Source: an uncultured Planctomycetaceae bacterium (lineage in GTDB: Bacteria; Planctomycetota; Phycisphaerae; SM23-33). From it: DNA of 28,653 nucleotides. Numbering within the stretch: the first letter of the stretch is position 1; every line of letters starts with the position of its first letter. Both the position numbers and the translations under genes were made by a program. Positions 1,407 through 28,015 of the stretch are shown here, piece after piece. The notes below the pieces were generated by a model. The model saw only the letters and a list, made by a program, of their open reading frames with translations. It was not told the DNA's origin and did not search any database. The stretch is taken from positions 1 through 28,653 of the forward strand of contig CAYWTX010000329.1 of NCBI GenBank assembly GCA_964461295.1, in the 5' to 3' direction.

Positions 1407-1452
1407 AAAGACTTCAGTCTCTCCGTTCTATTATCGACTATCGCGTGCGAAG

Positions 1453-1470: not shown

Positions 1471-1513
1471 CATTCGCCAGGCAAGATGATAGTAGCTCTG
1501 GAAAGAGTGAAAC

Positions 1514-5900: not shown

Positions 5901-6460
5901 TCTCGTTTCGTGACGGCAAGGGCGATTACGGGGCGTGGGCCAACATGGCGAACATTGGGAGTTTCAAGACCAAAACGGGGGCCACGGTCACAATACCCGC
6001 CGGTGCGAGTGAGCCGGTGACGCTGCCGCCCGGGTTCTTCAGTTGGGCCGACCAATCGGCCGCCAGGCCGTTCTCCCTGGTCGCAGAACCGGGGTCCGGG
6101 CTCATGCAGACCGTAGGGGGAATGAACAGCAAAGGTTTTGCCATGTTTGTGAGCGCCACATGGAAGTCCATGCCGCGGTACACTCCCAATCCCTGGGGGT
6201 TGCACAACATGCACGGGAACGCGGCCGAATGGACGGCCACCGCCTATCGCCCCTATCCCTATGATGGGAAAGACGGACGCAATGAGGATGGCGGGGGCCT
6301 GCGCAGAGTGGTGCGTGGCGGTTCCTGCTTTGACCTGCCCACGCATTGCACAGCCAGTGTGCGTACATCGTTCCGCAGTTGGCAGGGCGTCCACAACGTG
6401 GGATTCCGCGTCATATGTGAAGTGGTCGACCCTGGCGAGAAAGCACGGGACCAGGAGTGA
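2999..6460 (+). CDS. Exported multidomain protein: TolB/PD40-like beta-propeller + two CxxCH heme-c motifs + C-terminal SUMF1/FGE-sulfatase-like domain
   Basis: The frame is open from 2900. The ATG at 2999 follows GAGGTGG and begins a signal-peptide-like segment (MSARSNAHWMAASLVGSLLCLSCLAAQ). Propeller blade motifs are DPVYMPDGRIVFLSTR, FSMKADGSDVRQLTF, WDPAVMNDGRVMYVRWEY and IFTMNPDGTNQRAL. The heme motifs are CVGCH at 4766-4780 and CAGCH at 4919-4933. FGE-sulfatase signatures appear in the last ~300 aa (LIPAGEFMMG, RVSWQQAAAFCRWLS, RLPTEAQWEWACRAGS, NMHGNAAEWT, RVVRGGS). Confidence 0.85.
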   Translation: MSARSNAHWMAASLVGSLLCLSCLAAQRGPSPATNPGVAAPASAPASSGVNGPDDTVAKAARLRLAIEDLIATFGDRYARGREYLRRLNALVEGRGQESLDELRDQALLDNPLLDDIQGLLVLVGAGGSDGGTMSVSAHIGKAIGLVSPVRPGKSETAPGMKILYESKLGPEEVAKYKCKWDASKGSVGFINLHYDARKFLFSAAARNGYQIFEMNVDGSGLRQVSSDEHPYVDNFDPVYMPDGRIVFLSTRMFQGVPCLGGEPHVANLFSMKADGSDVRQLTFEQDEDWDPAVMNDGRVMYVRWEYADTPHHHTRLIFTMNPDGTNQRALMKSNSYWPNAIFYPRPIPNHATRFVGVISGHHGGGRSGPMYVFDPGMANEASSAVVQRIPPDPNELHKSPRWLEESSYDGPPRMSCPKYSHPHPLADAEGRGAGKYFLAGGAVVDVFGNSVGLAGGGAEVVPIQVRPRPPIIPDRTDRTRKDALVYLADIHRGGGLEGVPRGTVKKLRVFEYSFGYRDTKSAGEAGKGWSGPWEPHRIWGTVPVEADGSAHFLVPAMTPLALQPLDAEGKALQVMRSWFVAQPGESISCVGCHERPKDVSSGTMVGAAFRRPPNPIEPWYGPPRGFGFHREVQPVLNKHCAGCHTGANVPKGVRKPNLVSESLRVSTAKNGRTAINPSDSFTNLLPYIHRPSSESDYVMHPAAEFDADASPLIQMLRSGHGGVKLDAESWDRLVTWIDLNAPAFGTWREGWSIPAPQGGEEDFSELRRKMRRLYAGIDDDPESVPSSPVDLGPPVKHQSPPAAPVPDCPGWPFDPNAAAKMQQTAGARTSRRVVLVAGETARDVVLDMALIPAGEFMMGANEGRPDERPMARVKIDRPFWMGTFEITNQQYNLFDRQHDSRYHNQPSCHLGGRGWPMNHPLQPVVRVSWQQAAAFCRWLSEKTGEKFRLPTEAQWEWACRAGSDKPLSFRDGKGDYGAWANMANIGSFKTKTGATVTIPAGASEPVTLPPGFFSWADQSAARPFSLVAEPGSGLMQTVGGMNSKGFAMFVSATWKSMPRYTPNPWGLHNMHGNAAEWTATAYRPYPYDGKDGRNEDGGGLRRVVRGGSCFDLPTHCTASVRTSFRSWQGVHNVGFRVICEVVDPGEKARDQE

Positions 6461-13111: not shown

Positions 13112-14203
13112 CTAGAACCGTCCGAGGTCGCGTTCGGGCAGGAGCTTGCGGACGAGCACGTACCGCTGCTGGCGGTAGACGTTGAGTTCGCCGGTGATGC
13201 GGTAGAGAGGGGCCCGCAGGTAGCCCTTTGCGACGTGGGCGTCCTGCACCGCTTGCAGGAACTGCGAGGGCAGGATGCGAACGGGCGGCTCGCCGAGGGT
13301 GTTGTCCGACTCGAACCTCGCGGCCCACCAGCCGCCGCTGCCCGGGTCGGGCAGGACCCGCACGAGGCGGTCGACGATCATGGCGCCGCGGTCGGGCGCC
13401 AGCTCCTTGGTTGCCCCGGGCGCCACCGACGGCACGGGCGCCACCTTCGGCGGCGCCGTTTCCAGCAGGACCGGCTTGCCGACCTTCTCGCTCATGAGTT
13501 GGCCGAACACCGCATCGGCCGAGGGTCCGGGCTTGGCCGGGCGCGAGGCCGGGCCGGAGGCGGGCGCGGTGGCCGGGGCCGAAGCGGGCACGGGCGGCGG
13601 CGGGGGCGCGGGCGAGGCAACCTTTGGCGCGGGCGAGGGTCCCTCGTCCACCACGGTTGCCTTGCGGGGCATGAGGTAGGCGTGGTCGCGGAAGACGAAC
13701 GTCTCGCCGGAGACGCGGAACCGCACGTGGATGGACTGGACGGCGTGCTGTTGCATCACCTCCAGCAACCGGCAGGGCATGACGCGGCGCGCCGGCTCGG
13801 GCGCCTTGGCGGGCTCGTTCTCGAAGGTGAGCAGGTACCACTGGGCAGCATCGTCCAGCGAGAGCCGGCAGAGACGGTCGATGACCATGCTGCCGTCGGT
13901 GGGCAGGTCGGGGCGCTGCCTGGGCGCCTCGACGCCGACGGGCGTGGAAACGGGCACGGGCGGCCGATCGAGCAGCATGCGGGCGATGGCGCCGCTTTCG
14001 TCCGAGGCGGACATGTCGAAGGCGGGACGCGACGGGCGGTTGGGATCGGGCGCTGGCTGGGCCCGCGCCGACACACAGGGGGCGCCGACCAACAGGGCCG
14101 CCCAAAGGCATGCCGCGACGGATGTCGTGCCGCTGTTCAAGATACCAGGATTGTAGCGAGCAGGGGCTGGCAGGGGAAGCCTTCGCGCGATCAGGTGTCC
14201 CAT
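13112..14203 (-). CDS. Exported hypothetical protein with two tandem copies of an unassigned ~85-aa domain joined by a Pro/Ala-rich linker
   Basis: 363-aa ORF with a signal-like segment (TSVAACLWAALLVGAPCVSARAQP). The internal duplication pairs MVIDRLCRLSLDDAAQWYLLTFENE…RVMPCRLLEVMQQ…VRFRVSGETFVFRDHAYLMPRK with MIVDRLVRVLPDPGSGGWWAARFESD…RILPSQFLQAVQD…LYRITGELNVYRQQRYVLVRK. The linker is SPAPKVASPAPPPPPVPASAPATAPASGPASRPAKPGP. Confidence 0.7.
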   Translation of the reverse strand: MGHLIARRLPLPAPARYNPGILNSGTTSVAACLWAALLVGAPCVSARAQPAPDPNRPSRPAFDMSASDESGAIARMLLDRPPVPVSTPVGVEAPRQRPDLPTDGSMVIDRLCRLSLDDAAQWYLLTFENEPAKAPEPARRVMPCRLLEVMQQHAVQSIHVRFRVSGETFVFRDHAYLMPRKATVVDEGPSPAPKVASPAPPPPPVPASAPATAPASGPASRPAKPGPSADAVFGQLMSEKVGKPVLLETAPPKVAPVPSVAPGATKELAPDRGAMIVDRLVRVLPDPGSGGWWAARFESDNTLGEPPVRILPSQFLQAVQDAHVAKGYLRAPLYRITGELNVYRQQRYVLVRKLLPERDLGRF

Positions 14204-14303
14204 CTCAATGGAAGTGTCACTGTCACTGGTTTGTGCTGCAACTAAAGTGTCACCCCGTGCCCCCCGTCAAGGCGGCGGAGCGGAGGGAGGCGTCATCATT
14301 CGC

Positions 14304-14792
14304 TCACATGCCCTTCGTGAAGATCACCTTGTCGTCGCCGACGCTGTAGAAGTCCTTCACGCGCGCGGCGATGCCGTAGCCGCAGCGCAGGTAGAACTGC
14401 CGCGTCGGCTCGTACTGCTCGCGGCCGTTGGTTTCCACCACGGCCAGGCGGCCCCCGAACTGGCCGATGGACCGTTCGGAGTGGGCCATCAACGCCTTGC
14501 CGATGCCCTTGCCCTGTACCGTGCGGCACACGGCGATCCAGTAGATGTCGTAGGTGCCGACCGTGCATGGAGTGGGGCCAAAGCACACCCAGCCGACGGC
14601 GCGGCCGGAGAGTTCGGCGGTGCAGGACTGGTAGTGCCCCGAAGGTCCCTTGGCAAGGGCGTCGTCGAGGACCTCGGCGGCGATGTCGATCTCGTCGGGG
14701 CGGAACATGCCGGTGGCGAGCATGAAGTCGAGGATGGCCTGGCGGTCGGAAGCCCGACTCGGACGAATTGTCAAATGCGGAGTATTGTGCAC
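14304..14792 (-). CDS. GNAT-family N-acetyltransferase
   Basis: 162-aa ORF with a GTG start at 14792. The acetyl-CoA-binding motif is VCRTVQGKGIGKALM (Q/RxxGxG/A), in the usual GNAT context (…YDIYWIAV…, …FYLRCGY…). It is the last gene of the minus-strand kamA cluster. Confidence 0.85.
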   Translation of the reverse strand: MHNTPHLTIRPSRASDRQAILDFMLATGMFRPDEIDIAAEVLDDALAKGPSGHYQSCTAELSGRAVGWVCFGPTPCTVGTYDIYWIAVCRTVQGKGIGKALMAHSERSIGQFGGRLAVVETNGREQYEPTRQFYLRCGYGIAARVKDFYSVGDDKVIFTKGM

Positions 14793-14842
14793 TATTGGTC
14801 TTTCTGTCGCCCCCGCGGGGCTCCGGTGCCTGCTATGTGGTG

Positions 14843-14864
14843 GCCGGGGGCTTTCGCCCCCGGC
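14843..14864 (-). terminator. Perfect 9-bp GC hairpin (GCCGGGGGC-TTTC-GCCCCCGGC) between the ATP-grasp genes and the GNAT gene
   Basis: The stem-loop is seen directly. It lies 67 nt downstream of the stop at 14931, and a second small palindrome CCCCGCGGGG sits at 14811-14820. There is no U-tract on either strand, so a terminator role is uncertain. It could be an attenuator or an RNA-stability element. Confidence 0.3.
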
Positions 14865-14930
14865 CAGACCCTGACCGCCCCTCCGGGGCGAAGAGCCAAG
14901 ATGGTTCTGCCGGCTGTCCTCTTGTCCGGA

Positions 14931-16049
14931 TCATGCCCTCATCGCGTTCTCGACGCAGTTGCGGACAAAGTCCTCGCAGGCCCAGCCGGCGAAGTCGACG
15001 GCCGAGGCGAACCCGCCTTCGGGCGAGATATCGGGGTTGGGGTTCACTTCGAGCACCATCGGGCGTCCGGCCTCGTCGAGGCGGAAGTCCACGCGGGCGT
15101 AGTCGCGGCAGCCGAGAGCCTGCCAGGCCCGCAGGCTGATCTGCCGCGTCAGCCGTTCGACGCGGCGAGGCAAGGGGGCGGGGAGGATCCGGGGAGTATT
15201 GTTGTATCCGAACGTGTTCGGCAGCCACTTGGCCGCGTAGTCCACGATCCGGTGCATGCCGGGCTGGAACGTGGAGAAGTCGATCTCGGCGACGGCTAGC
15301 ACCTCGGCCTGGCCGGCCCGCTCAACGACCGAGACGTTCAGTTCGCGGCCGTCGATGTACTGCTCGACGATGGCCGGCTGGGCGAATTTCTCGTGGATCT
15401 CGCGGAGGGCGCGGGCCAGGCGGGGGCCGGCGCCCGGCACGATGGACCGCTCGGCGTGGATGCCTTCGGATGCGTCGGTGAAGACGGGCTTGACGATCAG
15501 CGGCCCAGGCGGCAGGTCGGCCCGCGAGACGCGCTGGCCGGGATCGACGAGCACGGCCCGGGGCACGGGCACGCCTGCGGCCGACAGGACGGCCTTGCTC
15601 CGCCACTTGTCCAGCGACAGGGCCAGGCATTCGGTGGTGTTGCCGGTGAAACTCCGTCCCATCGCGATGCAGACGGCGGGCGCCAGGTTTGCCTCCTGCG
15701 GGCGCTGCTGGAAGCCTTCGACGAGGTTGAACACGACGGGCTCATCGCCGGCGGCGAGGGCGGCGGGCACATCCCGTAGCGTGGCGGCCGAGGCCTTCCG
15801 GCAGGTCGCGCCGAGGCGGTCGAGGGCGGCGGCGACGGCGTTGACTTCCTCCAGGACGCCGGCTTCGCTCTCGATGTAGCCGCCGGCGGCGCCGGCAGCG
15901 GCGGGCTCGTTGTAGAGGATGACGACGGAGGGGAGCCTTTCGCGCCGGGATTCCTCGCGCCGCGAGCGATCGGACCCAAAACGGGCGAGCCGCTCTCTTC
16001 CCGAGAATCGGCAATCGGCAATCGGCAATTCGCACTCTCCCTTACGCAC
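14931..16049 (-). CDS. ATP-grasp ligase, D-alanine--D-alanine ligase-like (second of two)
   Basis: Ddl-family landmarks are present: SVVILYNEP…ESEAGVLEEVNAVAAALDRLG, LIVKPVFTDASEGI, AIVEQYIDGRELNVSVV and VLEVNPNPDISPEG. The GTG at 16049 overlaps the upstream stop by 8 nt. An alternative in-frame TTG at 16028 lies 7 nt after AAGGGAGAG. No ATG occurs before the conserved core. Confidence 0.8.
   Translation of the reverse strand: MRKGECELPIADCRFSGRERLARFGSDRSRREESRRERLPSVVILYNEPAAAGAAGGYIESEAGVLEEVNAVAAALDRLGATCRKASAATLRDVPAALAAGDEPVVFNLVEGFQQRPQEANLAPAVCIAMGRSFTGNTTECLALSLDKWRSKAVLSAAGVPVPRAVLVDPGQRVSRADLPPGPLIVKPVFTDASEGIHAERSIVPGAGPRLARALREIHEKFAQPAIVEQYIDGRELNVSVVERAGQAEVLAVAEIDFSTFQPGMHRIVDYAAKWLPNTFGYNNTPRILPAPLPRRVERLTRQISLRAWQALGCRDYARVDFRLDEAGRPMVLEVNPNPDISPEGGFASAVDFAGWACEDFVRNCVENAMRA
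16006..16030. repeat. 3.5 tandem copies of the heptamer AATCGGC at the junction of the two ATP-grasp genes
   Basis: AATCGGC AATCGGC AATCGGC AATT is read directly. On the coding (minus) strand it gives GAATTGCCGATTGCCGATTGCCGATTC, with TTG triplets at a 7-nt spacing. One of these (16028) is a candidate start codon. Confidence 0.6.
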
Positions 16050-17019
16050 GTTTCATCGCGCTCAGAAGGATCTCCGAGATCAGATGTCTGTAGCTCATTC
16101 CTTCCTGCGTGGCGATCATCGGCAGGTCGCTGTGCGTGGGGTGCATGCCCGGCAGCGGGTTGACCTCGATGAAGCTCGGGCGGCCGTCGGCGTCGAGGCG
16201 GATGTCGACGCGGCTGACGTCGCGGCATTCGAGGGCGATGTGTGCCCGCAGGGCGAGGTCCTCGACGGCGCTGCGGACAGGCCCGCGCCGCGGGGCCGAG
16301 TAGCGCACCAGTTTCTCGCACTTCTCCTTCATCTCGAAGGAGTAGATCGCCTTGCCGTCGTCGGGCAGGATCTCCACCTCCATCGTGCCGATCACGCGGG
16401 CGTCGGCCCCCGTGCCGAGGACGGCGGTGGTGAACTCGCGCCCGGGGAGGTACTCCTCCACCAGCACGCTCTGGCGGTACTTCGCCAGCAGCGCTCGGCA
16501 TGCGGCGGGGAGCTGGTCGGGCGTGTCGATGCGGGAGGCGGCGTCGATGCCCTTGCCCGTGCCCTCGGCGATGGGCTTGACGAACAGCGGGTAGCGCAGT
16601 GCATGGCCGTCCAGTTGGGCTTCGCTGCCGACCACGAGGAACTCCGGCGTTCGCAGGCCGGAGGCCCGCACGAGCCGTTTGGCGACGGCCTTGTCCAGCG
16701 TGGCCGCGCTCACCAGCGGGTCGGAGAACGTGTACGGCACGCCGTACAGTTCGAGAATGGCGGGCACCTGGGCCTCGCGGCTGCGGCCGGCCAGGCCCTC
16801 AGCGATGTTGAACACGAGGTCCCATCGGTCGCCGGCGACGAGACGCTTGCACAACGCGCGGGCATGGCCGATGCGGTCGGTCGTGTGGCCGAGCGAGCCA
16901 ATGGTCGACTCGATCGCCTCGATGGTCGATTCGCTGTCGAACTCCGCGACGTCCTCGATGCCGTAGCCTTCGGCGAGGTAGTCGGTCCGCAGATCGTATG
17001 TCAGGCCGATGGCGGCCAT
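16042..17019 (-). CDS. ATP-grasp ligase, D-alanine--D-alanine ligase-like (first of two)
   Basis: The ATG at 17019 is preferred over the TTG at 17046 (MAAIGLTYDLRTDY…). Motifs are LFVKPIAEGTGKGI, VLVEEYLPGREFTTAVLG and FIEVNPLPGMHPTHSDLP. The protein ends at TAA 16042-16044. Confidence 0.85.
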   Translation of the reverse strand: MAAIGLTYDLRTDYLAEGYGIEDVAEFDSESTIEAIESTIGSLGHTTDRIGHARALCKRLVAGDRWDLVFNIAEGLAGRSREAQVPAILELYGVPYTFSDPLVSAATLDKAVAKRLVRASGLRTPEFLVVGSEAQLDGHALRYPLFVKPIAEGTGKGIDAASRIDTPDQLPAACRALLAKYRQSVLVEEYLPGREFTTAVLGTGADARVIGTMEVEILPDDGKAIYSFEMKEKCEKLVRYSAPRRGPVRSAVEDLALRAHIALECRDVSRVDIRLDADGRPSFIEVNPLPGMHPTHSDLPMIATQEGMSYRHLISEILLSAMKRA

Positions 17020-17071
17020 GGGTGCTCCACATCGATCAAGCCGCAAGGGACGCGGGCAAAGAAGAGACGTT

Positions 17072-17096
17072 CACAGATCACACAGATATCACAGAT
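17072..17096. repeat. Three copies of CACAGAT at 9-nt period in the kamA/ATP-grasp spacer
   Basis: CACAGATca CACAGATat CACAGAT is read directly. It is followed by an 8-bp hairpin, CAAGAGGA-N8-TCCTCTTG, at about 17097-17120. Confidence 0.5.
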
Positions 17097-17186
17097 CAAG
17101 AGGACAAGGTTCTCCTCTTGTCTTTCCTCTGCGCAATCTGCACTACTATCCGCAACTTTCTTCGTCTCCCGCGCTGATTCTTCAAT

Positions 17187-17213
17187 CGCAGAGGGCGCAG
17201 AGGACGCAGAGAA
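17187..17213. repeat. Three copies of CGCAGAGnn at 9-nt period in the same spacer
   Basis: CGCAGAGGG CGCAGAGGA CGCAGAGAA is read directly. Related CTCTGCG/CTCCGCG words recur at about 17137-17146, 17231-17260 and 17322-17335. A 7-bp hairpin, CGCGGGC-AAG-GCCCGCG, lies at 17270-17286. Confidence 0.5.
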
Positions 17214-17345
17214 GGGCTCTGGAAGAAGGTCTCCGCGATCTCGGCGTTCTCTGCGATCAGCCCTTCGGTCGCGGGCAAGGCCCGCGCTGGGCAATCCACG
17301 GACCGTCTCTTCCCTGCCCCTCCGCGTCTCCGCGGCCAGCGACGT

Positions 17346-18746
17346 TCACTGAAACAACGGGGTCTGGATGGTCTGCACGTGCTCGTGGCTCGCGCGGGGT
17401 TGGGGGGTGCGGCCCTGCACGCTGGGGCGCACCTTCGCCTCGCGCCGGTCCTGGCGGGCCGTGTGCGCCGGCTGAATCTTCGACGCCCGCCCGCACGTCA
17501 GGTCGTGGACGGTGGGGGAGTCGATCTCGGCCGTCGCGGGCGCCACGTTGGCGTTGGGCTCCGGGTAGGACACGAGCACGCCTTCGAAGTTCCGAAGCAC
17601 CGTGTGCGACGGGCTGCTGGAAACGATGTACGTGGGCAGCACGGGGATCTTGCCGCCGCCGTGGGGGGCGTCCACGACGAACGTCGGGATCGCCAGCCCG
17701 CTCAGCCGCCCGCGCAGAAACTCCATGATCTCCACGCCCCGGCTGATCGGCGTGCGGAAATGCTCCACGCCGCGGACCAGGTCGCATTGGTACAGGTAGT
17801 ACGGGCGCACGCGCATCCGCACCAGCCGCCGGCAGAGGTCCATCATCAGGGCGGGGTCATCGTTGATCCCGCGCAGCAGCACGGACTGGTTGCCCATGGG
17901 CACGCCCGCGTCGACGAGCTTGCGGCAGGCTTCCCGCGCTTCGGGCGTGATCTCCGAGGGGTGGTTGAAGTGCGTGTTCAGCCACAGCGGGTGGTGCTTG
18001 CGCAGCATGGCCACCAGCGAATCGGTGATCCGCATGGGCATCGTCACGGGCACGCGCGTCCCGATACGAATGATCTCGACGCTGGGCACGGCCCGCAGGG
18101 CCGCCAGGACCCGGTCCAGCGCCTCGTCGCCCATCGTGAGCGGGTCGCCGCCGGATACGATGACGTCATGCACTTCGCCGTGGGCCGTCAGGTACGCCAC
18201 GACCTGGCTCAGGCGCGAGGCGGAGATGCACGATTCCCGGTGCCCGGCGGCGCGCTTCCGCGTGCAGTGCCGGCAGTACATCGCGCACGTCGTCGTCGCG
18301 ATCAGCAGGGCGCGGTCGCCGTAGCGGTGCACCAGGCCCGGCACGGGCATGTCGTGGTCTTCCTCGAGCGGGTCGTCGGCCAGGAACGGCGGATCGAACA
18401 GCTCGTGAAGCTGCGGCACGGCCATGCTGAAGACCGGGTCGGTGGGCCCCAATTCGCGAATGAGCGAAGCATAGTACGGGGTGATCGCAAGCGGAAACTT
18501 CTCGGCGGCCTGTGCCAACCCCGCTTCAGGCCGCAGGGAAGGGTAGAATTCCTGAAGCTGCTCCACGCTTCGGATTCTGTGGCGCATCTGCCACTGCCAA
18601 TCGCTCCAGCGAGCGTCGTTTCTCAGCGAGGCAAGCTTGGCCGATGGCGTTACGCCGTCTGCCCGTCCGCCTCCGTCCGTGCCGGCGGACTTAGATGGAG
18701 GTTCATCACTTGAAACTGCGTCCGAGGCTTCGACCATTTCTAGCAT
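17346..18746 (-). CDS. kamA: Lysine 2,3-aminomutase (KamA/AblA family radical SAM, PLP-dependent)
   Basis: The radical-SAM cluster motif CAMYCRHC lies at 18264-18287. By recollection the protein is near full-length colinear with clostridial KamA (WSDWQWQMRHRI…ITPYY…DPLEEDHDMPVPGLVHRY…VSGGDPL…WLNTHFNHPSEIT…GNQSVLLRGIND…RPYYLYQCDL…PTFVVDAPHGGGK). The frame is open to GTG 18779. The ATG at 18746 is preceded by AGGAG, which overlaps the TetR stop codon (TAGGAG). Confidence 0.9.
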   Translation of the reverse strand: MLEMVEASDAVSSDEPPSKSAGTDGGGRADGVTPSAKLASLRNDARWSDWQWQMRHRIRSVEQLQEFYPSLRPEAGLAQAAEKFPLAITPYYASLIRELGPTDPVFSMAVPQLHELFDPPFLADDPLEEDHDMPVPGLVHRYGDRALLIATTTCAMYCRHCTRKRAAGHRESCISASRLSQVVAYLTAHGEVHDVIVSGGDPLTMGDEALDRVLAALRAVPSVEIIRIGTRVPVTMPMRITDSLVAMLRKHHPLWLNTHFNHPSEITPEAREACRKLVDAGVPMGNQSVLLRGINDDPALMMDLCRRLVRMRVRPYYLYQCDLVRGVEHFRTPISRGVEIMEFLRGRLSGLAIPTFVVDAPHGGGKIPVLPTYIVSSSPSHTVLRNFEGVLVSYPEPNANVAPATAEIDSPTVHDLTCGRASKIQPAHTARQDRREAKVRPSVQGRTPQPRASHEHVQTIQTPLFQ

Positions 18747-18759
18747 AAACACGATTCTC

Positions 18760-19470
18760 CTACTTCTTGGGTTCGGCACCGGCAGGCCCCGTCGTCGTAC
18801 CCGGTTGGATCGACGGGGGCGTCCCCTGGTTGGCCAGGAACGCTTCAGACGCCGCTACAAACGCCTGCCGCATCGGACCCAGACTTTTCTTGATTTCCTC
18901 GGCCGCAAGATCGATCATCGCAAACGAAAGGAAGCCGGAAACAAACCCGGCTATCGCGTACGTCAGCCTCTGCACCTTCTTGCGGTCAAGTTGCAGCACA
19001 AAGGGCGTAAGGAAGTTCTCGATCTCGGTGAGATACCGCCGGTACGGCTGTTCCAGGTCCTCGATGGCTTCGCGCTGCAACTTCAGCAGCAACCTGCCCT
19101 GGAACAACAGGACGAACGCGTCGCGGCTGGTCTGCGAGAAGTCCCAATGCACCAGCAGCAGGCGGTCGAGGGCTTCAGGCAAGTTGCGCGGGGCAGGCTT
19201 GTGGTCGGAAAGTGCCGTAAGCAGAAGAGTTACCACGTCATCCACCAAAGCCACCATCAACTCCTCCCTGCAAGAGAAGTGCCGGTAGAAAGTCCCCTTG
19301 CCCAGGTCGGCCGCTTCGGTGATCTCTTCGATCGTGGTCGCGTCGGAGCCCTTGTCGGCGAACTTGCGGAGCGCTGCGTCCAGCAACCGCTTGCGGGTGC
19401 GTGAGGTACGTCGCGCGGAGCGTGTCTTGCGTGCTTCAGATTGTTCCACTGCAATCGCCATTTCGACCAA
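18760..19470 (-). CDS. TetR/AcrR-family transcriptional regulator
   Basis: The N-terminal HTH is RKRLLDAALRKFADKGSDATTIEEITEAADLGKGTFYRHFSCREEL, followed by an all-helical ligand-binding-type C-terminus. The start is TTG at 19470 or ATG at 19461. This is the first gene of the minus-strand cluster. Confidence 0.9.
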   Translation of the reverse strand: MVEMAIAVEQSEARKTRSARRTSRTRKRLLDAALRKFADKGSDATTIEEITEAADLGKGTFYRHFSCREELMVALVDDVVTLLLTALSDHKPAPRNLPEALDRLLLVHWDFSQTSRDAFVLLFQGRLLLKLQREAIEDLEQPYRRYLTEIENFLTPFVLQLDRKKVQRLTYAIAGFVSGFLSFAMIDLAAEEIKKSLGPMRQAFVAASEAFLANQGTPPSIQPGTTTGPAGAEPKK

Positions 19471-20044: not shown

Positions 20045-21955
20045 CTACTGCCTCTTGCCGCAAGCGGGGCAGAAGCCTCCGCCGGATTCCAGGGCGGCGC
20101 CGCAGTGGCGGCACCTGGCGCCCGCGCCGATGACCACCGGCGTGCCGGCCAGGCCGGCGACCACCATCGGTTGCGGCGCGGCGCGGCGCCCGGCCGCGGC
20201 CGCCGTCACCGCCGCCACCACCTGCTCCAGCGATGTCTTCATCAGCCGCTCCATGCGGTCGGCGTGCGAATCGGCCATCTGCTTCTGGTCGGCAAGCTGT
20301 TTCTCCAACGCGGCGGCCCGCTCCCCCGAGATCGCGCCCTCGTCGCGGTACTTCTGGGTCAGCGCCCTGGCCGCCTCCGGCGAGGCCGCCGCCGCCAACG
20401 CCAGAATCTGATCCGGCGTCATGTTCTGCTGCGCACGCACCCGCTCCAGCTCGACGATCCTCTCGGCGGCCGGGCCGTCCACAATCGCCATGATCGCCCG
20501 CGACGTGCTCTTGCTCAGCGCCTCCAGCCGCGCCGCCTCACGCTTCTGCTCGCGGTCCAGCGCGTCCTGTTCAACGGCCACCGTCTCCCGCAGCAGCCGC
20601 TGGCCCAGCTCCGCCTCCGCCTTGTCCCGCGCGAACTCGTCCCACTCGACCTTCTTCTTCAGGGCGTGCTCGGCCTCCTCCTGCCGCAGCTTCTCGCCGT
20701 GCTCCAATCGGCCCATCTCCAGCCGCACCTTGCCCTGTTCGGCCTCGCCCTTTGCCGCATCCAGGCGCCGCTGAAGACCGCGCATCTGCCGTTCGTCCTG
20801 CCGCCTTTCGTCGTGCAGCAGCGCTTCCCACTGCTTGGCCCGCTCGGCGCCGTCCTGAAGCGTCTCGATCTCGATCCGCCGCAGGATGCCCTCGCGGCCG
20901 CGCTCGAACTCCAGCCTTGCCGCCAGCCGCGCCATCTCGTCGCCCCGGATGACTTCCCGGAGCCCCAGTTCGTGCTCGGTCTGGCGGATGAACTGCTCGA
21001 GGTCCTTGCCCGTCTTGAACTCGTGCATCTTGTCCGTCGAGAACGTCTCCCGCAGGCGCTGGGCCAGCCTCGTCCGCTGCTCGGTGACGTCGGCCTCGCG
21101 ATCGGCAAAGCCCGCGCTCCGCTGCTTGTCGGCCAGGTCCGCCTCCCGCCGGCGAATCCTCTCGTAGGCCTCGCCGGCGAAGCTGACGAAGCGGATCTGC
21201 ACCAGCTCCAGCCCCATGCGCCGCAGCGTGGGCGCCACCGCCTGGCGAAGGTCTTCCTCGATCCGCGCGCGGATGGCGGGGTCGGTGAACAGCCGCTCGG
21301 CAGGATGCCGGCCGGCAATGCCCGCCAGGAGCATCTGGACCTCGTCGGCAAGTTGCTGCTCCATCTCGGCGACCGTCAGGACGTTGCGGCCCTTGAACAG
21401 GTTGACGTACAGCGCGTCCATGTCGGCGATGCGAAAGACGAGCCGCTCCACGCTGCCGACCTCGATCTTGTCGGCCGTCCACAGGCCGCCGTTCTCCAGG
21501 TCGATCGTCACGTCGCCGGCGTCGATGAGGACCACGGATGCGTCCTGATCGATCATGAAATGGTTGAGCCGGTTGAGGAACCCGCCCATGTCATGCCGGC
21601 CGGCCGGCAGTTCGGCGCGGAACCTGCCGGCCTGGAAGAGCAGCGCTCGCGTACCGTGGTCGATCACCAGCGGCTTGGCCAGCCAACCCTTGACATCCTG
21701 GTTGTCCACCCGGACGGCGAAGTCGCCGTCGCGGCGCGACCAGCGGTCGTTGAGCAGCGTCGGCTTGGCCACCTGCGACAGGTCGGCGCCGCAACGCCAG
21801 CAGAACTTGCTCGTCCGGGCCACCTCCGCGGCGCAGGACCCGCACTGCGTGAGTCCCTTGGGCCCCACGGCCCCGCACTTGGGGCAGAACTGCGAGCCCT
21901 TGCGCACGCGATAGTCGCATTCCCGATTCACGCACCGGTTCGTGAACAATCCCAT
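20045..21955 (-). CDS. Double zinc-ribbon + SPFH/Band-7-like domain + long Glu/Arg-rich coiled coil + C-terminal zinc-ribbon protein (YdjI/COG4260-like)
   Basis: The ATG at 21955 lies 6 nt after AAGGAG. The N-terminus has two CxxC…CxxC ribbons (CVNRECDYRVRKGSQFCPKCG; CGSCAAEVARTSKFCWRCG). Residues ~70-270 read as the Band_7_1 type of SPFH domain (…LVIDHGTRALLFQAGRF…GRHDM…VVLIDAGDVTIDL…VERLVFRIADMDALYVNLF…GLELVQIRFVSF). About 300 aa of heptad-like ER/EA/QR-rich sequence follows. The protein ends RCRHCGAALESGGGFCPACGKRQ. Confidence 0.75.
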   Translation of the reverse strand: MGLFTNRCVNRECDYRVRKGSQFCPKCGAVGPKGLTQCGSCAAEVARTSKFCWRCGADLSQVAKPTLLNDRWSRRDGDFAVRVDNQDVKGWLAKPLVIDHGTRALLFQAGRFRAELPAGRHDMGGFLNRLNHFMIDQDASVVLIDAGDVTIDLENGGLWTADKIEVGSVERLVFRIADMDALYVNLFKGRNVLTVAEMEQQLADEVQMLLAGIAGRHPAERLFTDPAIRARIEEDLRQAVAPTLRRMGLELVQIRFVSFAGEAYERIRRREADLADKQRSAGFADREADVTEQRTRLAQRLRETFSTDKMHEFKTGKDLEQFIRQTEHELGLREVIRGDEMARLAARLEFERGREGILRRIEIETLQDGAERAKQWEALLHDERRQDERQMRGLQRRLDAAKGEAEQGKVRLEMGRLEHGEKLRQEEAEHALKKKVEWDEFARDKAEAELGQRLLRETVAVEQDALDREQKREAARLEALSKSTSRAIMAIVDGPAAERIVELERVRAQQNMTPDQILALAAAASPEAARALTQKYRDEGAISGERAAALEKQLADQKQMADSHADRMERLMKTSLEQVVAAVTAAAAGRRAAPQPMVVAGLAGTPVVIGAGARCRHCGAALESGGGFCPACGKRQ

Positions 21956-22083: not shown

Positions 22084-22743
22084 TCACAGCGGACGCATGG
22101 CGTGTTTGATGATCCGCACGATACCGCGCAGGATCGCCATGGCGATCAGGAACGCCACCAGGGCCGCGACGATCACCAGGGGGTACCGCCAGAACTGGCT
22201 CACGGCTTCCGACCAGTGCATGTACGCGTCGCCCTCGACCGGCCCGCTGCTCCAGACGATCTGCCCGGTTTCCACGGCCGCCAGATGCACGGAGACCTTG
22301 ACGCGCCCGCGGATGCTCCACATGTTGACGGACTCATCCCAGATTCGCCCGTACAGGATCGCGCTGACGCCCTGAATCCTGCCGAACTTCTGGATCGTCG
22401 CGGCGTCCATGATGTCCTTCTGGCGAACGCCGCGCTCGATCTCCGCCACCAGCTTCTTCCACGTCTCGTCGTTCCTGGTGAACAGGCTCAGGTCGGTGCG
22501 GGTCACGGCCGTCTTCAGCAGGTTCGTGACGTACTCCTCCTTGTCGCCCTCGACAGGCAGGACGGCGACGCTGCCGGTCTTGGGGGCAAGCCGGGCCGCC
22601 CGCAGCGACTGCTCGATCTGCGCGACGGCCTTCTCCGAAGCTCGCTGGAGGGTCTCGCGCTCATTGCCCGCGGCGGGAGCGGCCAAGGCCGCCAGGACGA
22701 CCGTCGCCGCCACGCCCGCGATCGTTGCACGCGTCATCATCAT
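22084..22743 (-). CDS. Small bitopic envelope protein: signal peptide, LpoB/CsgG/FlgO-like periplasmic domain, C-terminal TM anchor
   Basis: The real start is the ATG triplet run at 22735-22743, 8 nt after AAGGAG, and not the 649-aa ORF start at 24033. The signal is MMMTRATIAGVAATVVLAALAAPAAG. The pattern SVAVLPVEGDKEEYVTNLLKTAV…GVSAILYGRIWD…VSVHLAAVETGQIVWS is typical of that fold class by recollection. The C-terminal hydrophobic helix is YPLVIVAALVAFLIAMAILRGIV. Confidence 0.65.
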   Translation of the reverse strand: MMMTRATIAGVAATVVLAALAAPAAGNERETLQRASEKAVAQIEQSLRAARLAPKTGSVAVLPVEGDKEEYVTNLLKTAVTRTDLSLFTRNDETWKKLVAEIERGVRQKDIMDAATIQKFGRIQGVSAILYGRIWDESVNMWSIRGRVKVSVHLAAVETGQIVWSSGPVEGDAYMHWSEAVSQFWRYPLVIVAALVAFLIAMAILRGIVRIIKHAMRPL

Positions 22744-22808
22744 CGCTTCGTCTCCTTGGGTTTCCCGTTCATCGCGGCGCCTCTTGCCGCCGCCGGACCG
22801 ATGGACAC

Positions 22809-24704
22809 TCACTTCGCTCCCCCGGGCGCCGCAGCGGCCTGCCTGGCCGCCAGGCCCCGGACCTTGCCGGCCCCGATACCCGCGGCCGCCTTGCGAAGGG
22901 CATCGACGGCTTCCTTGTCGCCGCGATCGTGCAGCAACTCGTATTTCGCCGCATACGTCCTGGCATCCCAGCCTTCCAGCGAGGCATAGTGAACGCCCCT
23001 CAGTCTGGCCAGAGCAGCGCGGAATTGCTCCGCCGCCGCCAGCGAGCCCAACTCGCCCACTTCGCAATCCAGCACGACCGGCCGTGCCGCGGCGACGGCC
23101 TTGTCGGCGGCCGAGAGCAGCTTCTCGGCCAGTTCGCCCGCGGCCGCCTTGACGGCGCTGTTGGCGGCGTCCTCCTCGCGGAGGAGACGTTCGCCCCGCT
23201 TGGCGGCCGTCGTGACGGCGGCCAGTTCCAGCCGCGCCGGATCGAGGATCCGGCCCGCCAGCGAGGCGTCGAACGAGTAGAAGTTCCCGAACTTCTCGTT
23301 GAGCTTGGCCGCGCCGCTGGTGTGCACGAAGAAGCTCGCCTCGCCCGCGACCACCCGGTAACCGGCCTTCTGCAACGCCTCGGCCAGCACCCGGCTTGCG
23401 GCGGCGGTCTTCGCCGACCCGCCCGACAACTCCAGCGTTTCCTCGCAGAGGATCCGCACGAGACGCAGCTTGTCGGCCGCTTCCTTCGCGACCGCGGCCT
23501 TCTGGACGGCTCCCAGCGTCGGCACGGGCACGACCGGGTTCATCCGCGCGGCTACCTTGACCAGCCCGCCGGCCTCGACGCAATCCGTCACGGTCACGCC
23601 CGCTCTGCCGAACTTGCCGGCCGCGGCCTCGAAAACCTTCCGGACATCCGGCGTGCCATGGGGCACGAAGGCCGTGAAGATGGCTACCCCCACCTTGCAC
23701 GACACCAGTGTGGCCGCCAGGACCGATTCCTGCCCCTTCATGTGGTCGCGAAGGGCGGCCGCATCCGCTTCGCTGGGGACGTCCGACACCGTCAACTCGA
23801 CGCGGATGGGCGCCGGCGGATTCACCCGGCCCTCCACGCGGATGGGCTTCGCGGTCGCCGTATAGGACGTCACCTCTATGCCCCGCGGGGAATGCTTCTC
23901 CAGCCCCGCCGTCAGCGAGGGGCGGAAATCCCGGGAACCGGGGGCATACGCGATCGTGAAGCTGCCCTTCCCGCCGCTGAAGGCGCCAAGCTTGACCGAC
24001 TGCACGCCGGGCAGTTTGCCGAGGTAGTCGCACAGGGCGTCGGCGGCCCTCACGTCGGCAAGATCGACCACCGTCAACGCCACGAGGATGGGTTGCGGCC
24101 GAGGCGGCGCCACAACCGGGGGCGGGGGCGGAACCGCTTCGGGCGGCTTGACCACGGGCGGCGGCGGCGGGGGCGGAACCGCTTCAGGCGGTTTGACCAC
24201 GGGCGGCGGCGGCGGGGGCGGAACCGCTTCAGGCGGTTTGACCACGGGCGGCGGCGGCGGGGGCGGAACCGCTTCGGGCGGCTTGACCACGGGCGGCGGC
24301 GGCGGGGGCGGAACCGCTTCAGGCGGCTTGACCACGGGCGGCGGCGGCGGGGGCAAGGCGGGCGCGCTCACGCCCGCCAGGACTCGGGCCGTTCGCCCGT
24401 CCACGAAGTACTTCTTGACGCTCGCGCCGCACTTGCCCAGGTTCCGGGCGAAGTACTCGTGCTGGGGGACATCGCCCCCCCTGGCGGCGATCAGGTACTC
24501 AGCCCGCCCGGTTGCCTCGTCCCAGCCTTGCAGTGCAACGCTGTCCGGCTGGAACTGTCGCGACAGGTCGGCGTGCAGCGAACTCGCCTGCTGCCGGGCG
24601 GCCACGCCGTCCACGGCGACCTCGGCCTTCCAGCCGCAACCGGCCAGGGCGCCCGCCGCCGCTACCATGAATGCCGCCTTCCACAGCGACCCTATCGGCT
24701 TCAT
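22809..24704 (-). CDS. Lipoprotein with a 5 x 15-aa polyproline spacer and several repeated ~50-aa alpha/beta modules
   Basis: The ATG at 24704 lies 8 nt after AAGGAG (frame open to 24788). The lipobox is MKPIGSLWKAAFMVAAAGALAGC. The repeat (VVKPPEAVPPPPPPP) occurs five times. Recurrent module starts are AEVAVDGVAARQQASSLHADL, ILVALTVVDLADVRAADALCDYLGKLPGV, IRVELTVSDVPSEADAAALRDHMKGQESV and VVLDCEVGELGSLAAAEQFRAALARLRGV. Confidence 0.75.
   Translation of the reverse strand: MKPIGSLWKAAFMVAAAGALAGCGWKAEVAVDGVAARQQASSLHADLSRQFQPDSVALQGWDEATGRAEYLIAARGGDVPQHEYFARNLGKCGASVKKYFVDGRTARVLAGVSAPALPPPPPPVVKPPEAVPPPPPPPVVKPPEAVPPPPPPPVVKPPEAVPPPPPPPVVKPPEAVPPPPPPPVVKPPEAVPPPPPVVAPPRPQPILVALTVVDLADVRAADALCDYLGKLPGVQSVKLGAFSGGKGSFTIAYAPGSRDFRPSLTAGLEKHSPRGIEVTSYTATAKPIRVEGRVNPPAPIRVELTVSDVPSEADAAALRDHMKGQESVLAATLVSCKVGVAIFTAFVPHGTPDVRKVFEAAAGKFGRAGVTVTDCVEAGGLVKVAARMNPVVPVPTLGAVQKAAVAKEAADKLRLVRILCEETLELSGGSAKTAAASRVLAEALQKAGYRVVAGEASFFVHTSGAAKLNEKFGNFYSFDASLAGRILDPARLELAAVTTAAKRGERLLREEDAANSAVKAAAGELAEKLLSAADKAVAAARPVVLDCEVGELGSLAAAEQFRAALARLRGVHYASLEGWDARTYAAKYELLHDRGDKEAVDALRKAAAGIGAGKVRGLAARQAAAAPGGAK
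24127..24351 (-). repeat. Five perfect-phase 45-nt tandem repeats encoding the polyproline spacer
   Basis: The unit is GGCGGAACCGCTTC[G/A]GGCGG[C/T]TTGACCACGGGCGGCGGCGGCGGGG, repeated five times, with a degenerate partial copy from about 24106. The only differences between copies are two positions that are synonymous on the coding strand (CCC/CCT Pro, AAG/AAA Lys). Confidence 0.95.
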
Positions 24705-24798
24705 CGCCTGGTCTCCTTCTCCAGATTTCCAGAGCGTTCGTTCTTCTGCCTGCCGGTGCATCTCGCGCGTCACGGCGCCCTGCCGCACGCACGCGGAA

Positions 24799-25971
24799 TC
24801 ATGCGTTCGCCTGCTGCCATTGGCGATACCGCGCCGCCTGTTCGTCGTTGGCCTGGGGCACTGTGGCGGCCAACTCGAAATCGCCGATCGTCAGCGGGCG
24901 CACGCGAAGCCGGTAGCCCTCCACCGCACGTCGCCCCGCGTCCACATGCCGCAGCAGGTCGGGGTTCTGCTCCATCACCATCCGCTGCACGGCCGCTTCG
25001 CAGAGCTGCGCAATCCGCCGCCCCGAATGACCGTCCGTGCGCTTGACCAGTTCCTCCGCGCCGCCGCTCAGGGAGTAGCCCTTCCGGCCGATGGCGATCT
25101 CCAGTATGCCGCGCCGCACTTCGGCATCGGGCAGCGGCACGTACACGCGGCGGTCGAACCGCGAAAGAATGGCCGCGTCCAGCAGCCAGGGCAGGTTCGT
25201 CGCCGCCAGCGTGAGGATGAACGTGTCGCGCCCCTTCTCCGCCAGGCCGTCCAACTCCGCCAGCAGTGTGGCCAGCAGCCGACGTTCCGGCCCGCCGCTG
25301 TCGGCTGAGTCGCGACTGGCCGACAGGGCGTCGAACTCGTCGAAGAATACCACCGCCGGCGCGTGGCGCCGGGCTGCCGAATACAAGGCCTCCACCAGCT
25401 TCGTCGATTCGCCGAAGTACTTGCTCAGCATGTTGGACGTCTTGACGTTGAAGAACGTCGCCTCCAACTCATTGCTGGCCGCCGCGGCCAGGAGCGTCTT
25501 GCCCGTGCCCGGCTGGCCGAACAGCAGGATGTTCCTGCCGCCGGCCAGGCGGACTCCCTCGGGCCGCTCGGCCAGGGCGAAACCGTAGGACAGGCGAATC
25601 TGGTCCTTGACCTCGCCCAGTCCGGCCACGTCCACCCACGTGATGGACGTCTTCTCAATCAGGGCTTCGGCGGCGGAGGCGTATTCGTCGCCGGCGTCAT
25701 CGCCTTCCACGGCCGGGGCAGGCTTCGCCGGCTCGACGGCGGGGGCCAGGCGCAGCGACTCGGCTTCGCGGCGGTACTGTGCGGCCAGCTTCATGCGGCG
25801 CTGCTTCTCCGCCGGCGTGACCGCATAGGAGGCGTATCGCTCGGCCAGGGCGGCGCAGCCCTCGTAGGCCTCGGCGGCCGCGGCCGGCCTGCTTTCCTGG
25901 CGGAGCCCCTTCGCACGCTCCAGCCCGCGCTGTAGCGAGTCGTGCACGCTCTTGCTGAGGTCGATCCCCAT
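24799..25971 (-). CDS. Vps4/katanin/spastin-clade AAA+ ATPase with an MIT-like N-terminal three-helix region
   Basis: The ATG at 25971 follows GGAAGGAAGGA. Walker A is GQPGTGKT (25495-25518), pore loop 1 is SKYFGESTKLV and Walker B is AVVFFDEFDAL. The segment ATNLPWLLDAAILSRFDRRVYVPLPD is nearly colinear with Vps4 [24 protein letters not shown]. The small-domain and C-terminal helix region is …TDGHSGRRIAQLCEAA…LTIGDFELA…DEQAARYRQWQQ. The N-terminal ~75 aa (…AAAEAYEGCAALAERYASYAVTPAEKQRRMKLAAQYRREAESLR) resembles an MIT domain. Confidence 0.8.
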   Translation of the reverse strand: MGIDLSKSVHDSLQRGLERAKGLRQESRPAAAAEAYEGCAALAERYASYAVTPAEKQRRMKLAAQYRREAESLRLAPAVEPAKPAPAVEGDDAGDEYASAAEALIEKTSITWVDVAGLGEVKDQIRLSYGFALAERPEGVRLAGGRNILLFGQPGTGKTLLAAAASNELEATFFNVKTSNMLSKYFGESTKLVEALYSAARRHAPAVVFFDEFDALSASRDSADSGGPERRLLATLLAELDGLAEKGRDTFILTLAATNLPWLLDAAILSRFDRRVYVPLPDAEVRRGILEIAIGRKGYSLSGGAEELVKRTDGHSGRRIAQLCEAAVQRMVMEQNPDLLRHVDAGRRAVEGYRLRVRPLTIGDFELAATVPQANDEQAARYRQWQQANA

Positions 25972-26020: not shown

Positions 26021-26662
26021 TCACACCGGCTCGGGCGCCTCGCCTTCCTTGTCGCTCTTGGCCAGGATCTGGTCGACCTTCTTCATTCCCGTTTCGGCGG
26101 CGGCGGGGTTCTCGACTTCCGCGCTGCGCGCTTCCTGCATCGCCGCCACGATGGCCATGGTGTCCTCGTCCTCCACGCCGGCCAGGTCCACCCCATCCGG
26201 CGACTCCATGGTCTTGAGGATCTGGGCGAACCGCTCCATCTGGAACTGCCCCTCGACCGTCGCCTGCTCGACGTACTTCTGGAGCTCGTCCAGATCCATC
26301 CTGCTGACGACGCTGCTGACGCCCAGCTCCTTGACCAGCGACTCGTTCTCCTTGATGGCCGACAGGCCCGACAGGATGCGCACTTGCCGCGAGATCATCG
26401 CGAGCTGGCGGTCCTTGCCCTTGCCCCCGGCGTCCAACTCCTTGATCTTGCGGGCGATGGCGATCTGCTGCCGTTGCGAAGTCTCGTCCTTGCCCTTGAC
26501 GAAAAGCTGCTGCTTCCGCTTCTCCAGGTCGTCCACTTCCCGTCCCACCCGCTGCTCGACCTGCTCCAGGCGCAGCCGCTCCTTGCGGAGCTCGTCGATC
26601 GTGATCTTCTGGAGGCTCTTCTTGCCCGACAGCATGCCCATCAGCTTGCCCAGCAATTCCAT
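26021..26662 (-). CDS. ESCRT-III/Snf7-like (CdvB/CHMP-like; PspA-superfamily) helical protein
   Basis: 213 aa, with the ATG at 26662 lying 6 nt after AAGGAG. The protein looks all-helical. It is colinear by eye with yeast Snf7: IDELRKERLRLEQVEQRVGREVDDLEKRKQQLFVKGKDETSQ against LREHINLLSKKQSHLRTQITNQENEARIFLTKGNKVMAK, and MDLDELQKYVEQATVEGQFQMERFAQIL against [27 protein letters not shown]. It has a short hydrophobic N-terminal helix (MELLGKLMGML), an acidic segment (GVEDEDTMAIVAAMQEA) and a terminal amphipathic helix (MKKVDQILAKS). Confidence 0.65.
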   Translation of the reverse strand: MELLGKLMGMLSGKKSLQKITIDELRKERLRLEQVEQRVGREVDDLEKRKQQLFVKGKDETSQRQQIAIARKIKELDAGGKGKDRQLAMISRQVRILSGLSAIKENESLVKELGVSSVVSRMDLDELQKYVEQATVEGQFQMERFAQILKTMESPDGVDLAGVEDEDTMAIVAAMQEARSAEVENPAAAETGMKKVDQILAKSDKEGEAPEPV

Positions 26663-26701: not shown

Positions 26702-28015
26702 CTACCGCTTCGATGCCACCAGCCCGATCTCCGGCAGGTCATCCACGATGAACTCGCCGGTCCTGGCCATCTCCCCGAACGCCGCGCGCATCCAGGCCTC
26801 GTGCGCCGCCGCCTTCCGCCCCGCCGCCGCCAGCGAGATGCTGTCCTTGCTCACCAACTCCTCCCGCACCGACGAAATGCACTGGCGCACCTTCTCGGCG
26901 AAGGCCGCGGGATCCAGGATCGGCAGGAATGCCGCCAGACGCTCGTCGCTCTCGTCCCGCCAACTGCGCCCGGTGTGCAAATCCACCAACGCCGCCGCCA
27001 GACGCCGGTCCCGAAAATGCCTCACGCAGGCCGCGTCGGCCACTACCGCGCCGGCGCCGGCCGTCCATCCGGTGGGCGAACCCACCAGCGACACGCGGAA
27101 GCAGTTGGCGTGCTTCGCCTCGTCCGCCATTGCGTTCAGCAGCGACAACAGCTCACACTCCGTCACCGGTTCGGCGTCGAAGCCCGCCGCCGCGATCGCG
27201 TCCACGCGACAGACGAACCGGCCCTCGATCACCAGGCACGCCTTTGGACGCCCCCATCCACCCGCCCGCAGCGTGAACCGGCTGACGGCGCCGCACGGCA
27301 GGGGGCCGCCAGCCCGCGAAGCCGCCTCGACTTCGTGCTTCACCCGCGCCTTGCGCAGCACCAACTCAAGGTTCGACAGCGGCTCGGGCAGACGTTCCAC
27401 CTGCTCCAGCCGCTGCGCGAAGCTCCTGAGGAACGTGTCCTCCGCCACCTTGACGTCTTGGCGGCATACCACCGCCCGCCCCTCCGCGCGAAGGCGGGCC
27501 ACTACCTGCTCGACCGGCTCCAGCCCCGGCGGCGCCGCCGCCGAAGCCCTTGCCGCCTCGCCGGCCGCCTGCTTCTCCCCTGCCCCCGCCGGGCCGCAAA
27601 CCGATGCCGCCGCCGGTTCGAGGGGCTTCCCCTCAGACCCTTTGCCCGACTCCTCGGCTTCCTCGTCGGGCGCCGGCGGCGCGGTCACGCACTCGTGGAT
27701 CTTCTTGATCGTCCAGCACGCCTGGCAGATGGGCTTGCCCGTCGCCTGGCAGAGACCCCCGATCGACAGCTCGCTGAGGATTCGCGCTCCGCACGCTCCG
27801 CACCGCAGCCCGCCGATGGCCGCCTCGCCTTGGACCTGCGAAACCATCAGCCGCTTCTGCCCCTCGAAGTACCCTTCCAGGTCTTCCTCGCGGATGCGAT
27901 AGACCCGGCCTATCCGCCCAGCCGGCAACTCCCCGCTCCGCACGAGGCGGTAGAGCGTCTTGTATTCCACGCCCAATTTCCTCGCCGCGTCCTCGAGTGT
28001 CAGATAGGCGCCCAT
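26702..28015 (-). CDS. Excisionase/MerR-type HTH + four-Cys zinc ribbon + low-complexity linker + ~250-aa unassigned C-terminal domain
   Basis: The ATG at 28015 is preceded by GAAGGGACGGGAG. The HTH_17-like N-terminus is LTLEDAARKLGVEYKTLYRLVRSGELPAGRIGRVYRIREEDLEGYF. The CxxC…CxxC motif is LRCGACGARILSELSIGGLCQATGKPICQACW. The linker is Ala/Pro/Glu-rich. I recognise no motif in the C-terminal domain. Confidence 0.7.
   Translation of the reverse strand: MGAYLTLEDAARKLGVEYKTLYRLVRSGELPAGRIGRVYRIREEDLEGYFEGQKRLMVSQVQGEAAIGGLRCGACGARILSELSIGGLCQATGKPICQACWTIKKIHECVTAPPAPDEEAEESGKGSEGKPLEPAAASVCGPAGAGEKQAAGEAARASAAAPPGLEPVEQVVARLRAEGRAVVCRQDVKVAEDTFLRSFAQRLEQVERLPEPLSNLELVLRKARVKHEVEAASRAGGPLPCGAVSRFTLRAGGWGRPKACLVIEGRFVCRVDAIAAAGFDAEPVTECELLSLLNAMADEAKHANCFRVSLVGSPTGWTAGAGAVVADAACVRHFRDRRLAAALVDLHTGRSWRDESDERLAAFLPILDPAAFAEKVRQCISSVREELVSKDSISLAAAGRKAAAHEAWMRAAFGEMARTGEFIVDDLPEIGLVASKR

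Follow-up and report, generated by a model that had tools for sequence, protein, structure and literature searches.

Contig CAYWTX010000329.1 (GenBank assembly GCA_964461295.1), a stretch of 28,653 nt from an uncultured Planctomycetaceae bacterium placed by GTDB in the Phycisphaerae (SM23-33) and referred to here, at its full length, as the window, carries on its minus strand a gene (22809..24704) for a predicted lipoprotein in which a proline-rich segment is encoded by five nearly identical tandem units of 45 nt. The question raised by this locus is what such a protein does in the cell envelope and with which partners. [quoted passage not shown] The best explanation, to which we give a probability of roughly 0.55, is that the protein is the periplasmic arm of a trans-envelope module linked to an SPFH protein, with the repeat acting as a spacer of variable length.

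The open reading frame (ORF), known from the ORF list and its translation, codes for 631 aa (stop codon included in the coordinates given above) and starts with ATG; a Shine-Dalgarno sequence (GGAGAAGGAG) is found 5' of this codon, with GGAGAAGGAGAC ending six bases before it. The reading frame is backed by 37 homologues from the full HMMER search, and the alternative calls, one starting at GTG and longer, the other of 650 aa and made by the Joint Genome Institute (JGI), vary in the choice of the start only. Two large opposite-strand ORFs (22725-25046 and 24088-25308) were rejected as the usual shadows of high-GC coding DNA. The N-terminus, MKPIGSLWKAAFMVAAAGALAGC, comprises a basic n-region with lysine, an uncharged h-region and the lipobox L-A-G-C (…ALAGC), the signal peptide and lipobox together covering residues 1-23 (24636..24704, minus strand). 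This has the canonical form of the signal of a signal peptidase II substrate, in which Cys23 is expected to carry the lipid and to begin the mature protein. The assignment was made with a PROSITE-style pattern that asks for a positively charged n-region, an uncharged hydrophobic h-region and [LVI][ASTVI][GAS]C with the cysteine at about position 15-35. This pattern is satisfied by the target and, of the 37 other family members scanned, by 22; most of the remaining ones are either truncated at the N-terminus or have a lipobox that is near-canonical as judged by eye.

Tandem Repeats Finder (TRF) detected an array at 24117-24354 with a period of 45, 5.3 copies, 96% matches and a score of 441; the other four arrays that it found in the window score 52-70. 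The five units of 45 nt (24127-24351, minus strand) lie inside a proline-rich spacer computed to span residues 116-204 (24093..24359, minus strand), i.e. 89 aa with 58% Pro, and differ from each other solely at positions 24327 (G/A) and 24321 (C/T), both of which are third codon positions with synonymous variants. Along the array the order of these variants is GT, GC, AT, AT, GC. In the register of the protein there are four full VVKPPEAVPPPPPPP units and a fifth one ending PPPPPVV, and the spacer as a whole contains four runs of seven prolines (P7), one P6 and one P5. Its length would be about 27 nm if it were wholly in the polyproline-II conformation; a single unit, which is in frame, corresponds to 15 residues or about 4.6 nm in that conformation. 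Since the units are near-identical and carry synonymous changes alone, the array probably arose by a recent in-frame tandem expansion, or gene conversion may keep the units uniform. The plus strand of the repeat DNA is rich in G runs. At the level of the protein, translation of consecutive prolines should rely strongly on elongation factor P (EF-P), P7 runs being costly to translate.

The complete layout of the target is lipid anchor, M0, proline rod, M1, M2, M3 and M4, all five domains being encoded on the minus strand. M0 (residues 24-115; 24360..24635) begins three residues past the lipid anchor and was matched by hhalign to a profile of the C-terminal module of the family, built from 28 family members, with a probability of 96% (E 4e-9), and by blastp to M4 (about residues 540-622; E 1e-4). 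M1 (residues 205-297; 23814..24092) and its paralogue M2 (residues 298-393; 23526..23813) share 30% identity over 96 residues in blastp (E 3e-11), and their joint alignment matches the M4 family profile in hhalign with a probability of 95.9% (E 6e-9). In none of the hhalign comparisons of M0 and M1/M2 with the family profile was the region of M3 matched. It is clear from these comparisons that M0, M1, M2 and M4 are four homologous ferredoxin-like (HMA-like) modules, and that M3, of about 140 aa, is a separate domain although its start mimics the strand-helix of the modules.

The structural models agree with this division. The AlphaFold2 model of residues 392-623, based on an alignment of 28 sequences, has a mean predicted local distance difference test score (pLDDT) of 92.2 and a predicted template modelling score (pTM) of 0.82, and consists of two domains. 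The first, M3 (residues 398-538; 23091..23513), is built of a helix, two strands, a helix, three long strands and a long helix, and this confident model resembles the group of envelope lipoproteins comprising CsgG, PelC, LptE, GNA1162 (3bf2) and TraT. The second, M4 (residues 542-621; 22842..23081), has the strand-helix-strand-strand-helix-strand order of the ferredoxin-like fold seen in HMA domains (PF00403), without CxxC. M1, modelled with a pLDDT of 89.6, shares that fold with the other modules, but the Pfam HMA profile does not match the protein, and M1 and M2 bear an extra C-terminal strand. Assignment to the metal-binding HMA domains was rejected, as GMxCxxC is missing and the loops (DLADVRAAD, SDVPSEADA, GELGSLAAA and DGVAARQQA) have no Cys pair; a BON domain was likewise rejected, with neither a profile nor a fold match.

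Much of the initial annotation of the gene product is thus upheld. Its call of a lipoprotein is borne out, as a prediction, by the match to the lipobox and signal pattern; the five near-identical 45-nt units with two synonymous differences were confirmed by TRF and by comparison of the units; and one module was indeed found before the repeat, with repeated α/β modules after it. The size proposed for the modules has to be revised, since they measure about 82-96 aa and not about 50 aa, and M3 does not count among the four. The sequence pattern by which they had been recognised represents the first strand, the loop and the first helix of the ferredoxin-like module. Of the folds that had been suggested for checking, the ferredoxin-like one fits the modules according to the models, the BON-like one does not, and the LpoB label applies to the neighbouring gene only.

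An exhaustive HMMER search (phmmer) returned another 37 cluster representatives with E ≤ 1e-3, among them 18 with E ≤ 1e-10. The matches cover residues about 454-620 (M3 and M4) alone, with 24-39% identity and phmmer E-values from 1e-19 to 1e-4. One of the 37, P0033 (2281 aa), was treated as spurious, being repetitive and unrelated. Word-indexed protein searches, whether the query was the entire sequence or residues 205-631, gave the self match only, and in the databases searched the identity of relatives does not go above about 40%. Neither the target nor the family core is matched by any model of Pfam, NCBIfam or PADLOC, and a sequence profile search of the PDB yielded a marginal match to HMA alone (E 0.034). 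Judged from these sequence comparisons, M3 and M4 together constitute the core conserved in a hitherto undescribed family of lipoproteins, which keeps the motifs DKFGNFYSF, RGxRxLxExxAAxSA and PGVxYVSLExWD, all present in the target.

Most of the relatives are proteins of 270-390 aa which, where the N-terminus is present, consist of a lipobox, a variable linker and the core. The linkers that could be delimited in the recovered loci are 31-94 aa long with 19-43% Pro; a figure of 141 aa and 12% Pro obtained for locus L008 is the product of a miscalled upstream start. Coiled coils replace the Pro-rich linker in P0014 and P0022, and repeated β-domains do so in P0016 and P0012. Short in-frame tandem duplications were found in the Pro-rich linkers of two loci, L003 (9868-9926, period 18) and L005 (257-328, period 27), indicating that change of linker length by in-frame duplication recurs in the family. 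Within this family the target is atypical, with an extra module on the side of the anchor, two extra modules preceding the core and, of the loci measured, the longest Pro-rich linker.

The company that the gene keeps was traced in 21 related loci, recovered with an alignment of the family; three of them come from metagenome-assembled genomes (MAGs) of Planctomycetota (a member of the Planctomycetales, one of the Phycisphaerae and an unclassified member) and 18 from metagenomes. In the window the order of genes on the minus strand is HTH_17 protein, 213-aa helical protein, AAA ATPase, lipoprotein, LpoB-like protein and SPFH/zinc-ribbon protein, with intergenic gaps of 39-128 nt. The order HTH_17, lipoprotein, LpoB-like, SPFH is kept in the 21 related loci wherever the contig reaches.

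The gene directly 3' of that of the lipoprotein in every locus with enough flank encodes the LpoB-like periplasmic protein (219 aa in the window; 22084..22743, minus strand), which scores 22.7 bits against PF13036 LpoB (cut-off 22.3) and has 42-57% identity to its counterparts. Hydrophobic segments at both of its ends correspond to a signal peptide and a C-terminal transmembrane (TM) anchor, and the family keeps a juxtamembrane HWSDA..FWRYP, followed by the TM segment and, on the cytoplasmic side, by a short tail with RPL at its end. It is the sole protein of the cassette with a membrane-spanning helix, none being present in the HTH, helical, AAA and SPFH proteins, and this predicted topology fits a connector between periplasmic and cytoplasmic partners. 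Next in the row is the SPFH/Band-7 protein (636 aa; 20045..21955, minus strand; Pfam Band_7, Zn_Ribbon_1, DZR and Zn_ribbon_3), whose two ends bear zinc ribbons and which lacks any hydrophobic or TM segment; it follows the LpoB-like gene in 13 loci, which are all those whose contig extends so far, with 38-58% identity. Its central region is long and by eye resembles a coiled coil. At the other end, the gene for the HTH_17 (excisionase-type) protein (437 aa; 26702..28015, minus strand; identified by Pfam and NCBIfam) is located 5' of the lipoprotein gene in 10 related loci, with 41-48% identity. Its HTH_17 domain is N-terminal and is accompanied by a Cys-rich segment and by some 250 uncharacterised residues at the C-terminus.

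The two genes that had suggested an ESCRT-like operon do not belong to this conserved set. The product of one (24799..25971, minus strand) is a classical, Vps4-like AAA ATPase with CdvC as its best NCBIfam match (164 bits against a cut-off of 650), for which tblastn at E ≤ 1e-4 found no match in any of the 21 related loci. The other (26021..26662, minus strand), described earlier as ESCRT-III-like, encodes the 213-aa helical protein; it occurs in two of the 21 loci, L014 and L015, with 54% identity, and Pfam and PDB sequence searches gave no match to Snf7 or PspA. Their rarity indicates that both are accessory inserts in a conserved, SPFH-centred cassette, and the earlier placement of the lipoprotein inside an ESCRT-like operon is therefore misleading, its conserved partners being the HTH_17, LpoB-like and SPFH proteins. 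A general precedent for ties between SPFH proteins and membrane-remodelling systems is offered by passages from two papers: in one, PspA, Band-7 and surface lipoproteins are linked (PMC11237479), and in the other, archaeal ESCRT loci are described that hold SPFH, coiled-coil and zinc-ribbon proteins (PMC10936438). As far as these passages go, the latter systems resemble the present one in their SPFH protein with a probable coiled coil and zinc ribbons, which here stands beside envelope proteins and, in the window, also near an AAA ATPase and a helical protein; the gene order of the cassette and the lipoprotein family were not met in the passages of either paper.

The spacer itself has parallels among better-known envelope proteins. 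In TonB a Pro-rich rod crosses the periplasm, and the 89-aa proline-rich segment of the target, whose repeats contain K-P and E, could form a comparable polyproline-II rod. The likeness ends there: TonB has an N-terminal TM helix, whereas the target has a cleavable lipoprotein signal and a lipid anchor; no TonB_C match was obtained with Pfam at E ≤ 10, the C-terminus being ferredoxin-like; and exbBD genes are absent from the window. The proposal of the initial annotation that the repeat serves as a spacer consequently has comparative support from the variable, usually Pro-rich linker between lipobox and core throughout the family, while kinship with TonB is ruled out by the missing TM anchor and TonB_C domain, leaving the proline rod as an analogy. 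A similar architecture is known from LpoB and RcsF. Both are lipoproteins of the outer membrane whose long linkers let them reach partners in the inner membrane, and like them the target has a lipobox, a long linker and a small globular α/β domain. PF13036 LpoB does not match the target at E ≤ 10, although it does match the neighbouring gene.

Taken together with the knowledge that SPFH proteins assemble into large membrane-attached oligomers, these features lead to the following scheme. The lipid anchor would hold the protein at one of the envelope membranes, with M0 at that surface. The 89-residue proline tract would act as an extended spacer, reaching up to about 27 nm, that pushes M1, M2 and the core across the periplasm, and at the far end the core would meet the periplasmic domain of the LpoB-like protein. 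The TM helix of the latter and its conserved cytoplasmic tail (…RPL) would then tie the assembly to the cytoplasmic SPFH scaffold, and each 45-nt unit gained or lost would shift the reach by 15 residues. We read the lipoprotein as the most variable, fast-evolving subunit of a conserved planctomycete cassette. The role is likely to be the organisation of the envelope or of membrane domains, or else sensing of the state of the envelope; catalysis is unlikely.

Several points weigh against this scheme. The link between the lipoprotein and the LpoB-like and SPFH proteins is drawn solely from gene order, and hhalign of M3 against the family of the LpoB-like neighbour indicated no relationship (probability below 1%). 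The model of M1 depends in part on the claimed homology, as its alignment was made up mostly of M4-type modules. Linkers in the family measure between 31 and about 94 aa, or even more where domains are inserted, and given this wide range their length may not be tightly tuned. The copy number, lastly, comes from what is apparently one set of metagenome data: the contig exists in two public copies, which differ by one base in 15.7 kb and apparently derive from the same sample, JGI metagenome 3300037485, the JGI contig being the only other assembly and having the same sequence, and short reads, if used, may not span the 225-nt array. The repeat could hence be real and its five copies nonetheless an assembly artefact, collapsed or expanded; we regard this as rather unlikely, because the order of the variants is specific and was found in both assemblies.

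Among other explanations for the locus, the one to be taken most seriously, though we hold it to be doubtful, is that the proline tract is a floppy, unconstrained tether and the array, instead of serving as a ruler, a neutral product of replication slippage in very GC-rich, proline-coding DNA. Neither the sequence nor the length of the linker is conserved in the family, small tandem duplications recur in other members, and an array with only two synonymous differences must be young, all of which would be expected of such a tether. Yet most of the linkers recovered are Pro-rich, a sign that selection may favour a segment which is extended and resists proteases, the P7 runs carry the cost and the EF-P dependence noted above, and members without a Pro-rich linker have elongated spacers of other kinds, namely the coiled coils and β-domain repeats. 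The fold of M3 gives rise to a less probable alternative, in which the CsgG/PelC-like core would form an oligomeric outer-membrane ring of an export or secretion route, with the rod and the modules as its periplasmic stalk, as known in principle from curli (CsgG) and the Pel polysaccharide (PelC). The identity of M3 to CsgG, PelC, LptE, GNA1162 and TraT is 9-22%, no Pfam profile matches, that of CsgG or PelC included, and M3 differs from these proteins also in its operon context and in its fusion to a ferredoxin-like module. Membership of the CsgG family was rejected, there being neither a profile match nor membrane-spanning hairpins nor a csgEFG context. Furthermore, M3 has about 140 aa compared with 206 residues in the matched CsgG chain, no segment like the CsgG hairpin was seen, the cassette is devoid of genes for secretion, polysaccharide or amyloid, and the monomeric LptE and TolB score almost equally well. 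An export ring is thus improbable.

Least probable of all is a reading in which the cassette would be mobile or serve in anti-phage defence, the lipoprotein being a surface sensor or effector. The excisionase-type HTH_17 domain does match MADS HTH models weakly, and the AAA ATPase matches IetA models with E 2.5e-36, but the latter match is no better than those to CdvC, PAN and FtsH and reflects generic AAA similarity, and the ATPase is missing from the other 21 loci. PADLOC has no match for the lipoprotein, LpoB-like or SPFH proteins, and genes for integrases, transposases or toxins were not found beside the cassette in the flanks examined. A bolder extension of the preferred scheme, the trans-envelope arm on an SPFH scaffold, would be a true trans-envelope machine, in which rings or arrays of the periplasmic lipoprotein are coupled through the single-pass LpoB-like protein to a cytoplasmic SPFH cage and, in this genome, also to a genuine bacterial ESCRT-III/Vps4 pair, the repeat being an evolvable ruler for the unusually wide planctomycete periplasm. 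We consider this extension improbable as well; if it were true, membrane remodelling would be coordinated with the outer envelope.

Further features were observed around the cassette. In locus L009 a Ser/Thr kinase with a zinc ribbon and an FGE-sulfatase domain is encoded between the HTH gene and that of the lipoprotein (3519-5519), and in L003 proteins with FGE-sulfatase domains (1065-5770 and 13351-19295) flank the cassette, three of them being Ser/Thr kinases, one of which has a zinc ribbon, and one being a zinc-ribbon protein without a kinase domain. Such kinases near the cassette may point to a link with signalling. Near-perfect tandem arrays are located close to the cassette in L009 (3233-3481, between the called HTH and kinase genes), L008 (2-192) and L014 (375-514); their periods are 58 nt (3.3-4.3 copies) and 35 nt (4 copies), and they contain internal GC-rich palindromes. 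Elsewhere in the window there are genes for an ATPase with AAA_14 and DUF4143 (105-1406, minus strand), for an ADP-ribosylglycohydrolase (1514-2836, minus strand) and for a 1186-aa protein combining a middle domain of the hydrazine-synthase-alpha type with an FGE-sulfatase domain (2900-6460, plus strand).

A lipoprotein with a Pro-rich linker would in itself be unsurprising; the value of the present one lies in its family, in its gene context and in the lone genome with the inserted AAA ATPase and helical protein. The family is new to Pfam, NCBIfam and PADLOC, and the cassette pairs periplasmic lipoproteins with a cytoplasmic scaffold of the SPFH/flotillin type. The in-frame 45-nt array, for its part, provides a natural experiment on the length of a spacer. 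The three related loci that could be assigned by name belong to MAGs of Planctomycetota, a phylum in which the envelope and the invaginations of the membrane are little understood, and the cassette is a concrete, testable candidate for the way in which an envelope of the Gram-negative type could have its outer layers wired to SPFH scaffolds.

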